Assembly: GCA_963763225.1 (NCBI GenBank)
Contig: CAVXNT010000007.1
Span: forward strand, 50,982 to 114,981
Length of the DNA stretch: 64,000 nt
Reading direction: 5' to 3'
Source of the DNA: an uncultured Actinomycetota bacterium
GTDB taxonomy: Bacteria; Actinomycetota; Actinomycetes; Propionibacteriales; Nocardioidaceae
The notes under the pieces were generated by a model, which had not been told where the DNA came from, ran no database searches, and saw only the letters and a program-made list of their open reading frames with translations. Shown piece after piece: positions 6,116-35,246 of this stretch (position 1 is its first letter; every line of letters begins with the position of its first letter). Both the position numbers and the translations under genes were made by a program.

Positions 6116-6191
6116 CGGCGCGGCCTCGGGATGTCATACGGACAGAGCAAGGGGTGACACCGTCCGCATGACGTCCTGGGGTGGGCAGATC
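6116..6191. repeat. REP-like palindromic intergenic repeat, empty copy of the IS110 target repeat
   Basis: Aligns without gaps to 21061-21117 joined to 22540-22558, 65 of 76 identical by manual alignment. Confidence 0.85.
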
Positions 6192-19147: not shown

Positions 19148-19321
19148 ATGACTGACGAGGACGAGCGCTTCGGCCGCCCCGACGGGCACCGGTACGACGC
19201 GCCCGAGTCCGACGAGAGCCGCATCTCCAAGGAGTGGGCCTACGCCGCGCTCGGGCTGCTGGTGCTGGTGCTCCTCGTGCTGATCGCCACCGGGACGGTG
19301 CCGATCTTCCCGACGGGCTGA
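19148..19321 (+). CDS. Small single-pass membrane protein (57 aa), not in the ORF track
   Basis: [57 protein letters not shown]; fills the gap with GC3-biased codons. Confidence 0.65.
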
Positions 19322-19322
19322 G

Positions 19323-19967
<645 letters not shown>

Positions 19968-20083
19968 GGCGCCAGACCCTAGTGGGTACCGCATGGCAGC
20001 GCAAAGGGGTTGGCCGGTCGCGAGTGGCTCTGCACTCTGGATCGACCTCGGACGGCCGCGGACGAGCGGATCGGAGGAGCGCC

Positions 20084-20575
20084 ATGGCCGACCAGAGCGA
20101 CGCGGTCGACTTCGCGCTGGCCGCCTACCGCGAGGACGGCGCCTGGCAGGTGCAGGAGCTCGCCCACGACGTCCTCGAGGACGTCGAGCACCCTCGGCCC
20201 ACGCGCTGCGCCGGTTCCCCGGCGACGGCGGGCGCGATCGGCATGGTCGCGGTCGACGAGGACTTCTTCGTGATCGTCCGGGTCGACCGGCCCGACCACC
20301 CGGGTGCTGCTCTCCGACGTCACCGCCGCCGACGAGTGGGAGCTGGCCAGCTCGGCCATGGACTTCCTCGGCCTGCCCGCCGCCGGAGGACGAGGACGAC
20401 CAGGTGCCCGGCCGGCGACCTCGACCTGCTCGGCGACCTCGGCATGCACGCCATGGACATGGGCGTGCTGCTCGACGACGTCGACCTCTACCCCGACGAG
20501 ATGCTCTCCGACGTGGCCCGCCGGCTCGGCTTCGGCGAGCTCTTCGACGACGCCGTCGGCCTCACCTCCGCGTGA
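20084..20575 (+). CDS. tRNA adenosine deaminase-associated protein, frameshifted
   Basis: [27 protein letters not shown] and DLYPDEML; acidic protein directly upstream of tadA. Confidence 0.75.
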
Positions 20576-21040
20576 GCACCGGCGACTCGCTGGGACGGCG
20601 CCGATGCGGGCCGCCCTGGACGAGGCGCGCGCCGCGCTGGCCGACCGGCGACGTCCCGATCGGGGCGGTCGTCCTCGACGCCGGACGGTACGCTGGTCGG
20701 GCGCGGCCGCAACGTCCGCGAGGCCGAGCCGACCCGACCGGCCACGCCGAGGTGGTCGCGCTGCGCGAGGCCGCGCCGGCGCGCGGCGAGTGGCGGCTCG
20801 ACGGGCTGCACGCTCGTCGTCACCCTCGAGCCGTGCACGATGTGCGCCGGCGCCGGCGGTCCTGGCGCGGGTCGACCGGATCGTCTTCGGCGCCTACGAC
20901 GCCAAGGCCGGCGCCGTCGGCAGCCTGTGGGACGTCGTCCGCGACCGCCGGCTCAACCACCGGCCCGAGGTGCGTCGCCGGGGTGCTCGCCGACGGAGTC
21001 GACGGCGCTGCTCGAGGAGTTCTTCGCCGGGCACCGCTGA
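20572..21040 (+). CDS. tadA: tRNA adenosine(34) deaminase, frameshifted
   Basis: DVPIGAV, DPTGHAEVVALR, VTLEPCTMCAGA, FGAYDAKAGAVGS and RLNHRP. Confidence 0.85.
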
Positions 21041-21060: not shown

Positions 21061-21117
21061 CGGCGCGGCCCCGGGACGTCATACGGACGGGGCAACGGGT
21101 GGCACCGTCCGTATGAC
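21061..21117. repeat. REP-like palindrome interrupted by IS110: left arm, loop and first part of the right arm (rest at 22540-22558)
   Basis: GCCCCGGGACGTCATACGGACGG (21068-21090) is the exact reverse complement of CCGTCCGTATGAC (21105-21117) joined to GTCCCGGGGC (22540-22549). Confidence 0.9.
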
Positions 21118-21159
21118 TGTGAGTGTTGGTGCAGCGGCCCGCGTTGGTGTGGTGGGCTG

Positions 21160-21370
21160 TGGGCCAGTTGGTCCCGGGTGTGACTCACCGTATGACTGGC
21201 TTCGTGCCTTCAACACGACTTGTCCGTCCGGGGCTGCTGGCCCGGTCCAAGCAGAGCAACTGACCTGATCAGGAGCTTGACCATTCGGCGTGTCCGCGCC
21301 GGATGTGTCCCATCACAGTCTCGTCGTCACTCCGCCTGGACCGAACCGTCACGTTCCCCCCCAGGCAAGG
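21160..21370 (+). ncRNA. Putative IS110 bridge RNA (boundaries approximate)
   Basis: Non-coding region upstream of the recombinase with segments at 21188-21196, 21215-21219, 21271-21276 and 21313-21320 matching target and donor halves in the expected order and orientation. Confidence 0.7.
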
Positions 21371-21380
21371 AGTAGAACGC

Positions 21381-22532
21381 ATGACCAGTGTGACCATGCT
21401 GGGCGAGCATGTCGACGTGGTGATCGGGGTCGACACGCACGTCGAGACCCACACCGCGTGTGCGGTGCGCGTCGACAACGGCGCAGTGCTGGACCGGATC
21501 ACCGTGCCCACCACGACGGCCGGCTATCGCGAGCTGGTCGAGTTCGCCGACACTGTGTGCGAGGAGCTGACCGGTCAACTCGCTCGTGCCGCACACGAAC
21601 CCAGCCTGGACCTCGAGCCGGTGGTGCTGACCGCACGTGCGTGGGCCATCGAGGGCACCGGCGGGCACGGCGCCGGCTTGAGCCGGGTTCTCGAGCAGGG
21701 CCACGAGCTGGTCTTCGAGCTGGACCGCCCCCAACGGGCAAGGCGTCGCCACGGCAAGAAGTCCGACCCGCTCGATGCCGAGCGCGCGGCCCGCGAGGCG
21801 CTGTCTCGGCCCCGCTTGGGCACCCCGCGGGCCGGGACCGGGGACCGGCAGGTCCTGGCCCAGTTGCTCTCGGCCCGCGCCGGCGCGGTCCAGGCCGCCA
21901 CCGACGCGCAACGCCAGCTGTTCTCCTGGGTGGTCTCAGCTCCCGAACAGATCCGGGAGCGGCTGCGGGGCCGGCGCGGTCACGACCTGCTCACCGCCGC
22001 CGCCCGGCTCCGTGGACACGCCACCTGGGGCCGCGACGCCCAGCTGATCGCTACCACCCTGGCCACCGTGGCCCGCCGGGCCCTGACGCTGATCGAAGAG
22101 GCCAAGGGGTACGACAAGCAGATCCGCGACCTGGTCCGCCAGTGGCGTCCCGACCTGCTCAACCAGGTCGGAGTCGGCCCGATCGTGGCCGCGACCGTGC
22201 TGTGCGCGTGGTCCCACCCCGGCCGGATCCACTCCGAGGCCGCCTTTGCCATGCTCGCCGGCGCCGCCCCGATCCCCGCCAACAGCGGACAGGTCGCCCA
22301 CCGCTACCGGCTCAACCCCTACGGCGACCGACGCCTCAACGCCGCCCTGCACACCATCGCGCTCACCAGGAAACGCTGCCACGCCCCGACCCAGGCCTAC
22401 TACGAACGCCGCACCGCTCAAGGCAAGAGCCCCCGCGAGATCCGCCGCTGCCTCAAGCGCTACATCGCCCGAGACCTCTACCGACTCCTCGAGCACCACC
22501 AACCCACGTCACCAGGGGTTGACGCGACATAG
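21381..22532 (+). CDS. IS110 family recombinase/transposase (383 aa), intact
   Basis: RuvC-like DEDD residues (GVDTH, AIEGTG, KSDPLDA), GVGP and PANSG catalytic serine, GDRRLNAALH, RCLKRYIAR; AAGGAG RBS. Confidence 0.95.
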   Translation: MTSVTMLGEHVDVVIGVDTHVETHTACAVRVDNGAVLDRITVPTTTAGYRELVEFADTVCEELTGQLARAAHEPSLDLEPVVLTARAWAIEGTGGHGAGLSRVLEQGHELVFELDRPQRARRRHGKKSDPLDAERAAREALSRPRLGTPRAGTGDRQVLAQLLSARAGAVQAATDAQRQLFSWVVSAPEQIRERLRGRRGHDLLTAAARLRGHATWGRDAQLIATTLATVARRALTLIEEAKGYDKQIRDLVRQWRPDLLNQVGVGPIVAATVLCAWSHPGRIHSEAAFAMLAGAAPIPANSGQVAHRYRLNPYGDRRLNAALHTIALTRKRCHAPTQAYYERRTAQGKSPREIRRCLKRYIARDLYRLLEHHQPTSPGVDAT

Positions 22533-22622
22533 GAGCGTCGTCCCGGGGCGAGCGGATCGTCGTGATCCTCGTCGAGCAGCTCGGCTGACGCGCGCGCTGG
22601 GGCCGTGGCGGACAATTGCCGG

Positions 22623-32495: not shown

Positions 32496-34366
32496 ATGTC
32501 CCGGTCCCTCGCTGCCCTGCGTCTGTGCCCTCGTCCTGGCCCTCGGCGCTCTGGTCGCGCCCGGCCCCGGCCGTCGCCGCTCCCGAGCGCTCCGCGCCCG
32601 TCCGCGGCTGGGCGCCGAGGGCGGCGACGTACCCCTCGACGGTGACCCGCACCGACCTCGCGATCCCGATGTCCGACGGAACCGTGCTGCGCGGCGACCT
32701 GGTGCTGCCCGCCGACGCCGACGGCAACGTCGGTCGACAAGCGGTTCCCGGTGATCGTCACGATCACCGCCTACAACAAGTCGGCGCAGTCCCAGGGCGG
32801 CGGCCTGGCGGGTACGCCGCCGTCGTACCTCGTGCAGCGCGGGTACGCCTCGCTCACCGTCGACGCGCGCGGCACCGGCAGCTCGGAGGGGAGCTGGTGC
32901 GTCCTTCTGCAACGCGCGAGGACAAGGACTCCGCCGAGGTCGTCGAGTGGGCGCACTCGCGCAAGCACCCGTGGAGCAACGGCCGGGTCGGCATGGCCGG
33001 CCCGTCGTACATGGGCATCAACCAGATCTTCGCCGCCGCCCAGCACCCGAAGGGGCTCAAGGCGATCTTCCCGCAGGTGCCGGCCGGTGACGTCTACCGC
33101 GACGTGGTCGCCTCGGGCGGCCAGGTCGACGTCGGCTTCATCCCGCTGTGGATGGGCCTGGTCACCGGCGCCGGCGTGGTCCCGCCGGCCGTGACCGCGA
33201 GCGACCCGCAGTCGGGGATGGCCGCGCTGGTCGGGCACCTGTTCGGCGCGGCGACGTTCACCGCGCCGCTGCTGCTCGACGCGGTGATGGGCGGCGACGC
33301 GACGTACGACGGCCCGTTCTACCGCGAGCGCTCGCCGATCGAGGTGATCGACCAGGTCGACGTGCCGACGTTCCTGGTGTCGGGCGAGTTCGACCTCTTC
33401 CAGCGCGGCACGCCGCTGCTGTTCGAGGACCTCCAGTCCCGCGGCGTGCCGACCCGGCTGATCACCGGCCCGTGGGACCACCTGCAGGCCTCGGCCGGCG
33501 AGGGGATGGCGGACGCCGGCTACGGCAGCCTCTCCGAGCTGCAGCTGCGGTGGTTCGACCACTACGTCCGGGGCAAGGCCGACCCGGCCCTGGACTCCGA
33601 CATCGCGCCGCTGACCTACTACGAGCAGGGCAGCGGCCGCTGGACGCACGCCGACCACTGGATGGGCGACCAGCACGCCGAGACGTTCCGCCTCTCCGGG
33701 TCGGCGGCCGCCGGCGGCGGCATCGGCGTGCTGACGCAGGGCGACGCGGTCGACGGCCGCGCGTACGTCCCGCCGGTGCCGGTGTCCGGGCTGTGCACCC
33801 GCTCCGCCAACCAGTGGACGGCCGGCCTGCCCGAGACGGCCCTCGCCGACCTGCCGTGCTGGACCGACAACGCCCCGAACGACAAGACCGGCGTGGTCTT
33901 CGAGACCGACCCGCTGACCGCGCCGCTGCACCTGCGCGGGCCGATCAACGCCCGGCTCTACACGTCCTCGCCCAGCGGCGACGGCATGCTCTCGGTCTCG
34001 GTCTCCGACGTCGCACCCGACGGCACCGTCACCCGGCTCACCGGCGGCTGGCAGGTGCTGTCGCTGCGCCAGCTCGACGAGTCCCGCAGCCGCTACCTCG
34101 ACGGACAGCTGATCCAGCCGTACCACCCGTTCACGAAGGCGTCGCAGCAGCCGCTCGGCACGGGCGAGGTGGCGCCGGTCGACGTCGAGGTGTTCCCGAC
34201 CGCCGCCGAGATCGCGCCCGGCCACCGGCTGCGGATCGCGATCCAGGCCTTCGACGTCCCGCACCTGGCGCCGTCGGTCCCCGGCGCGGCCACGACGCTC
34301 GTGCCGCTCACGGTGCGCACCGGTCCGGCGTACCCGTCGGTGCTGACGATCCCGGCGGTGGGCTGA
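32496..34366 (+). CDS. Secreted CocE/NonD family hydrolase, frameshifted
   Basis: [29 protein letters not shown] nucleophile, GPWDH and RLRIAI; signal-like N-terminus. Confidence 0.88.
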
Positions 34367-34475
34367 TCGGGTCGTGTGCCTGCTGACGCGCTCTGGCGCG
34401 TCCGTGGGCACACGACCCCCTGTCGGCCGGGTCCGGCACCGATGAGTACGCCGGTCGGCGGAGGTCCGTCCCGCC

Positions 34476-35156: not shown

Positions 35157-35246
35157 GGTGGCGTGTCCGAGCGGCCTAAGGAGAACGCCTCGAAAGCGTT
35201 TGTGGGTGCAAGCCCACCGAGGGTTCAAATCCCTCCGCCACCGCCA
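35157..35246 (+). tRNA. tRNA-Ser (anticodon CGA)
   Basis: Acceptor stem GGTGGCG/CGCCACC, G discriminator plus CCA, anticodon arm AACGC-CTCGAAA-GCGTT, long variable arm, T-loop GTTCAAATC. Confidence 0.96.

Follow-up and report, generated by a model that had tools for sequence, protein, structure and literature searches.

An IS110 element in one arm of a multi-copy extragenic palindrome of an uncultured actinobacterium, and its predicted bridge RNA

The use of REP sequences as targets by IS110 elements has been published for IS621, ISPa11, ISPpu9, ISPpu10, and ISRm19 (PMC1525189, PMC11208160, PMC12288879), and with this much documentation the habit of targeting a repeat is itself ordinary. In IS621, the target and the donor share a CT that is read by all four guides of the bridge RNA, and handshake positions 6-7 pair only after strand exchange (PMC11208160, PMC11208158, PMC13626964). 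PMC13626964 treats the core as invariant, with direction set by positions 6-7 only. Matching core dinucleotides are part of the design of engineered bridge editors (Perry preprint, 10.1101/2025.05.14.653916). For IS621, excision by a single-strand, copy-and-paste route has been proposed (10.64898/2026.08.31.748434). The available text of the ISEc21/seekRNA account (PMC11187229) discusses neither a one-base core nor the handshake, and that of the 2013 REP survey by Di Nocera (PMC3733652) mentions Actinobacteria 0 times.

The window analyzed here is a stretch of 64,000 nucleotides from an uncultured member of the Nocardioidaceae. It carries an intact IS110 element in one arm of a 75-copy extragenic palindrome. 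The element very probably reached this site by means of a bridge RNA that is predicted in its left end and that has a target guide matching the conserved repeat end.

The insertion site and the repeat family

The features of the site, together with a second copy of the repeat in the window, are as follows.

6122..6185, plus strand: second, unoccupied repeat copy, found by BLAST with the rebuilt unit
20604..21040 (start approximate), plus strand: tadA-like deaminase gene upstream of the repeat, found by tblastn with a relative's HAE/PCxxC protein
21068..21090, plus strand: intact left arm of the palindromic repeat, 23 nucleotides
21076-21086, minus strand: second exact 11-nucleotide target, within the left arm
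21091..21104, no strand: repeat spacer, 14 nucleotides
21105..21117, plus strand: 5' part of the right arm, in which 21109-21117 is the 9-nucleotide left target matched by the guide
21118..22539 (equally 21117-22538), plus strand: IS110 element, 1422 nucleotides, with end motifs common to its homologues
22540..22549, plus strand: 3' part of the right arm, in which 22540-22541 is the right target

When 21118-22539 is cut out, 21068-21090 and the rejoined 21105-21117 plus 22540-22549 are exact reverse complements of 23 nucleotides with a 14-nucleotide spacer, just as the original prediction had described. The next bases outward of the two arms are G and G and do not pair. Excision of 21117-22538 gives an identical product, and five other boundary pairs that were tried fail. 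A C is present at both junctions and makes the two excisions equivalent, so the ends of the element are fixed to within this one base. The expectation that the pre-insertion site could be rebuilt to one base therefore held, as did that of no target duplication, since nothing beyond the ambiguous C is duplicated. The inverted-repeat score at the rebuilt junction is 23, compared with a 99th percentile of 10 at 2000 random genome sites, and a chance origin of the rebuilt inverted repeat is ruled out. The inner 13 bp of the repeat stem can still form after insertion of the element.

The upstream gene is tadA-like, which agrees with the placement first given for the repeat. It matches the HAE and PCxxC protein of a relative in three frames, with best pieces of 71% and 89%, and is therefore frameshifted in this assembly; Pfam gave only a weak deaminase match to its product (PF14437, E 0.0024). 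Several genes in window 19240-21040 are frameshifted (tadA and, by inspection, its neighbors), and single letters at 20286, 20410, 20802, and 20973 are missing from the contigs of related organisms. These frameshifts are likely long-read assembly errors, and the element itself is clean. The gene downstream of the element encodes a zincin-like protein.

An empty allele downstream of tadA was not found at 29 orthologous loci, which belong to other species of the genus and all lack the repeat; the gene that follows tadA in the window is also absent from the same place at these loci. Among four contig sets from sequencing runs, not one crosses the whole stretch, and the listed joints include none that skips the element. 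The region after tadA is variable across the genus. A tRNA-like gene lies close behind tadA in 9 of the 29 other species (L083, L084, L091, and L094-L099, by eye), while the only tRNA of the window is Ser(cga) at 35157-35246.

A BLAST search of the genome with the rebuilt unit returned 78 loci, 75 of them at E<1e-3, and this establishes the multi-copy host repeat family that had been proposed. GTCC immediately follows the right-arm motif in 54 of the 75 copies, in agreement with the reconstruction. Under a rough coding model, an open coding frame contains only 1 of the 74 copies that could be tested, compared with 477 of 1000 random sites. The repeat is found between convergent genes in 30 of 41 copies that could be classified (33 could not be classified for gene orientation), compared with 23 of 558 controls. 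A looser pattern made of the two conserved repeat ends is present in 190 of 300 other genomes of the genus, with at most 63 copies in one genome, and its reversed control is present in 7. Across the genus, the length of the unit is fixed and its ends are conserved, and its middle varies.

The repeat is multi-copy, palindromic, and extragenic, as are REP and REPIN sequences. In its consensus, CGTC is paired within the stem and GTAG is absent. With no unpaired terminal GTAG or CGTC tag, the repeat is termed REP-like here and is not placed in the GTAG or CGTC families. A search for a RAYT gene gave no PF01797 match in the genome, the assembly of which is 61% complete, and a search of the window against Rfam was negative. 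Another palindromic repeat family, unrelated to the first and approximately 51 nucleotides long with arms starting GGGTCGTGTGCC, has 16 loci at E<1e-4 in the genome (G000:C4:601921-602010 and 15 others, including window ~34362-34418, which is C7:85343-85399). This family is also present in G017.

A second copy of the element is located in the genome at C4:600097-601302. Its start base is identical, and 16 nucleotides of left flank are common to both copies. It is 92% identical with 57 gaps, has no right end, and the left arm of its site is degenerate; for these reasons, it may be damaged or misassembled. Genome G066, with an element at 73% protein identity, has seven copies of its own related repeat. 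Two of the seven contain a full element, one contains a left-end stub, and four are empty, three of which read GAC-GT straight across the junction. In the same family, locus L101 (72% identity) has one element at the same position in a third related palindrome. Left junctions thus fall at one repeat position in 2 of 2 cases in this genome, 3 of 3 in G066, and 1 of 1 in L101. All four whole elements with the window guide are inserted at gac|gt in GACGTCAT palindromes, and the elements with this guide form a single branch (SH-aLRT 99) in a quick tree of recombinases that also has several long-branch rows, probably frameshifted reads.

The original prediction that other copies would sit at gac|gt of the repeat was thus borne out by the C4, G066, and L101 copies. 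It had also proposed that the opposite strand holds a further target in the intact left arm. That arm does hold an exact 11-nucleotide match, and insertion into it was not seen; both copies in the genome occupy the other arm.

A guide-motif scan of genomes gave five matches, of which three are IS110 elements (two being the G066 copies) and two are chance, and all five matches in a scan of metagenomes are chance. The left-junction pattern has one true match in 400 genomes of the family, the L101 contig, and one chance match without a transposase. The relaxed 11-mer is not above its reversed control in G066 (16 versus 11) or G329 (7 versus 16), so the repeat is low-copy in these genomes.

The recombinase and the predicted bridge RNA

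The original prediction named no mechanism. The left end of the element was found to hold a predicted bridge RNA of the IS621 kind, and the element contains the following features.

21121..21126, plus strand: predicted -10 box of a putative circle-junction promoter, its second base being A and its sixth T in 49 of 49 loci
21130..21335 (ends approximate), plus strand: predicted bridge RNA made of two stem-loops, with a guide loop inside each
21188..21196, plus strand: left target guide, identical to 21109-21117
21215..21219, plus strand: right target guide and handshake bases, complementary to the right junction (donor GTC and target GT)
21271..21279, plus strand: left donor guide, matching the right end of the element at 7 of 9 positions, with mismatches at positions 7 and 9
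21313..21320, plus strand: right donor guide and handshake bases, complementary to the left junction (target GAC and the left end of the element)
21381..22532, plus strand: intact IS110 recombinase, 383 amino acids, with D18, E91, D129, D132, and S302
22519..22524, plus strand: predicted -35 box TTGACG in the right end, with TTGAC found 20-21 nucleotides before the right junction in 49 of 49 loci
22531..22539, plus strand: left donor site, the last 9 nucleotides of the element, overlapping the recombinase stop codon

The recombinase matches PF01548 (E 8e-12), PF02371 (E 7e-17), and NF033542 (150 bits, cut-off 140). It has the two domains of the IS110 group, a DEDD RuvC-like N-terminal domain and, at the C terminus, a domain that carries a conserved serine. 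The DEDD residues (D18, E91, D129, and D132) are at least 97% conserved in 42 homologues, and S302 lies within an ANSG motif. The left end of the element is 263 nucleotides before the start codon and the right end is 7 nucleotides after the stop, which is the group's arrangement of one long and one short noncoding end. Closer recombinases exist, with up to 88% identity, and a sequence search of the PDB gave nothing at E<=0.001. Recombinases of the branch with the window guide are 370-402 amino acids long and most homologues are 350-357; the extra stretch lies before the catalytic glutamate, at approximately residues 85-110 of the window protein. Two more PF02371 matches in the genome (G000:C4:740665-740919 and C4:34237-34401) correspond to a distant IS110 lying at the end of a contig and a fragment that contains a stop, neither of which is matched by the window recombinase in tblastn.

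The window target guide matches its flanks at 9 of 9 positions on the left and 2 of 2 on the right. To place this in the wider group, 71 loci were examined, and 14 were dropped (2 without a protein match, 10 without a donor-loop anchor, and 2 without a left junction). The remaining 57 loci were parsed, 54 of them with a full left flank. At the six variable left guide positions, the mean match is 5.39 of 6, compared with 2.35 when shuffled (54 loci), and at the two right guide positions it is 1.87 of 2, compared with 0.90 (46 loci); one mis-picked junction and two loci parsed one base off are counted in these means and can only lower them. Guides and flanks covary, as none of 10,000 shuffles reaches the observed value on the left or the right, although these counts overstate significance because the homologues are related. 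The result holds when each genome (43) or each distinct guide (22) is represented by a single locus. In distant members, changes in the donor guide follow changes in the ends of the element.

The bridge RNA fold has 38 pairs, with 98.2% of cells paired over 30 homologues. Fourteen of the 38 pairs are changed on both sides, compared with 3.8 when shuffled, a count above all 500 shuffles and every slid control; the fold was derived from the same alignment on which the pairs were counted. As in IS621-type elements, the left end thus has a predicted RNA of two loops and conserved fold, with target guides that covary with the flanks and donor guides that match the ends of the element. The two promoter boxes are those expected from IS621 (PMC11208160) and may form a promoter at the circle junction. 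Both copies of the element are apparently co-oriented with the upstream gene (window 20604-21040 and 21118-22539; G000:C4:599980-600097). With this orientation, read-through could supply the bridge RNA, as in IS621 (PMC13626964).

The 11-nucleotide target of the window has 85 exact copies in the genome, all inside the repeat (41 in one arm and 44 in the other), and 0 outside, where 0.18 would be expected. Exact left-arm matches are found in 44 of the 75 repeat copies, and 41 matches lie on the other arm. With one mismatch allowed, there are a further 61 sites inside the repeat and 51 outside, so the guide alone is no guarantee of specificity.

By analogy with IS621, the element would be excised as a circle, the joined ends of which would form a promoter. 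The bridge RNA would pair the circle junction with the 11-nucleotide target, and the DEDD/serine recombinase would cut and exchange the top strands beside the common C. The circle junction sequence is absent from the assembly. Copies of the element land between genes because the only exact 11-nucleotide targets in the genome lie in the repeat, and judging by this position, the repeat may be a harmless landing site.

The crossover base and alternative readings

Among the 48 loci with both ends, position 9 is common to target and donor in 48, and position 8 in 2. In the window, the base before the common C is A in the target and T in the donor. The letter read at position 8 is the donor's for the right target guide in all 48 loci; for the right donor guide, it is the target's in 43 loci and the donor's in 0. 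The guides follow changes at this position in a few distant branches (target GCC, AAC, and TAC; donor ATC), and since 37 of the 48 loci have one identical pattern, few independent events lie behind the covariation.

The identical dinucleotide core read by four guides, as in IS621-type elements, is thus lacking. With the other bridge RNA features present, the element would work like IS621, yet as a variant. Target and donor differ at position 8, and there the letter read by either right guide is that of the opposite partner, which suggests an extra handshake position. Position 8 would probably pair only after strand exchange and so favor insertion over excision. The report of Siddiquee et al. 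(PMC11187229) states that target duplication is not characteristic of the family, which gives a short core partial precedent. A description of a one-base core was not found in the literature searched, with most subscription papers and ISfinder outside its scope.

Sister branches of the recombinase clade carry other guides. A high-copy, clustered motif of the TCGAGAC type is the target of L003-L006, L009, L011, L013, L020, L032, L033, L062, and L068; its copies in five hosts number 115, 62, 19, 10, and 109, compared with 0-3 in controls. With these guides in the sister set, the clade appears to have been re-aimed between repeat families within one genus. The largest group of homologues (L012, L014, L016-L018, L021-L025, L027-L029, L037-L040, and L044-L047) has the guide CGGAATGAC and variants. 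Its sites have approximately four more common bases (GCGG) upstream of the guide match and no hairpin, and its motif has 2-9 copies per genome, some clustered, clearly above control in only two of five genomes. Guides ending in CTGAC are found in L010, L034, L036, L042, L043, and L060, the flanks of which resemble gene ends; insertion is one base after TGA, an apparent stop codon judged from the flanks.

Taken across the clade, the evidence leans slightly toward a broader proposal. A widespread actinobacterial clade of bridge recombinases may naturally join sites that have one common crossover base, with the first core position turned into a third product-reading handshake position and no requirement for a matching dinucleotide core. 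Within one genus, the guide would also have been re-aimed at several different targets, two or more unrelated repeat families among them.

Other explanations of the site and of its reading were weighed against this one. An accidental location, a repeat that is a piece of the end of the element, or a junction made by the assembly could account for the site instead, and the assembly is error-prone (61% complete, with frameshifts in tadA and a garbled C4 copy). The recombinase frame is nevertheless intact, and the same insertion position recurs in independent genomes (G066 and L101). In G066, empty paralogues continue uninterrupted across the junction. Among the 57 parsed loci, the sequences beside the same ends differ, which means that the repeat does not belong to the element. 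Explanations of this kind are very improbable. An RNA-guided element could additionally need the repeat hairpin, a stem-loop together with a guide match, as reported for ISPpu10, where loss of the stem caused a drop to 43.85% (10.64898/2026.03.19.712850). All four whole elements with the window guide lie in palindromes, and none of the 51 one-mismatch sites outside the repeat is occupied, although two copies in the genome are too few to show avoidance of other sites. Inverted repeats are lacking at the sites of most homologues in the clade (scores of 3-7 in the CGGAATGAC-type group, where random sites have a median of 5), and the G066 insertion sites score only 8. The whole 11-nucleotide target is within the stem, and a full hairpin would presumably hide the strand paired by the right guide. 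A general hairpin requirement for the clade is rejected on these homologue sites; the hairpin may help here as it does in ISPpu10, and an additional need for it at this site is unlikely.

The register of the guides could instead be shifted by one base. The donor core would then be a canonical CT (the C and the first base of the element) with a two-base handshake, the second core base of the target would be free, and the cut would fall one base earlier. In all 30 aligned left ends, a T follows the left target guide, which allows this guide to be read with CT as its end; CT is likewise what the right donor guide reads. An IS621 oligonucleotide in the Durrant supplement (PMC11208160) agrees in part with each register. 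By eye, it has four unpaired bases before the guide, as the shifted reading gives, but it also has TGG after the guide and one unpaired base after the handshake, as the unshifted reading gives. Four loci begin with A and not T (L062, L065, L066, and L068), and the shifted register requires a moved cut site. Both registers give the same products and the same single common base. The shifted register is a tentative second choice, and the unshifted register, with position 8 as a handshake position, is preferred.

Comparison with known systems

The element resembles IS621 (PMC11208160, PMC11208158) in belonging to the IS110 group, with a long left and a short right end, a two-loop bridge RNA, a 9-nucleotide left guide, an 11-nucleotide target, and a REP target. 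The junction promoter and the handshake bases that pair after exchange, known from IS621, are predicted here. It differs in that only the C is common to target and donor, and in that cross-reading falls at positions 7-8 in place of positions 6-7. The recombinase is longer (383 amino acids) and distant, the host is actinobacterial, and the repeat is unrelated. If the reading given here is true, a natural clade without a match at position 8 would loosen the design rule for editors, and the mismatch would offer a direct test of how handshake pairing sets direction. Intact elements with varied guides on a near-fixed scaffold would form a natural reprogramming panel for high-GC hosts.

Like ISPpu10, ISPpu9, ISPa11, and ISRm19, the element belongs to a group of IS110-family copies at a fixed position in REP sequences (PMC1525189, PMC12288879). 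The hosts of those elements are proteobacterial, namely Pseudomonas putida for ISPpu9 and ISPpu10, P. aeruginosa for ISPa11, and Sinorhizobium meliloti for ISRm19 (PMC1525189). The targets of ISPpu10 are also mostly extragenic (97.1%; 10.64898/2026.03.19.712850). In ISPpu10, however, the core is CT and the stem-loop is a short 5' one; the crossover here is inside a 23-bp stem with a 14-nucleotide spacer. With ISEc21/seekRNA (Siddiquee 2024, PMC11187229), the element has in common an IS110-group recombinase with an upstream guide RNA and no duplication of target bases, and natural retargeting is known from a relative of ISEc21, ISMch6. The target of ISEc21 is, in contrast, linear and located inside IS3 elements.

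The repeat resembles the REP/REPIN dimers of the GTAG and CGTC families (Di Nocera 2013, PMC3733652), which are multi-copy extragenic inverted repeats often found between convergent genes, and like the CGTC repeats, it has no RAYT partner found. Unlike in those dimers, the arms are not hairpins themselves. A paper on this repeat, or on an actinobacterial IS110 that targets REP sequences, was not found in a search that had most subscription papers and ISfinder outside its scope. Set beside the systems above, the locus extends a known IS110 habit by an actinobacterial case and by a repeat family that is apparently undescribed.
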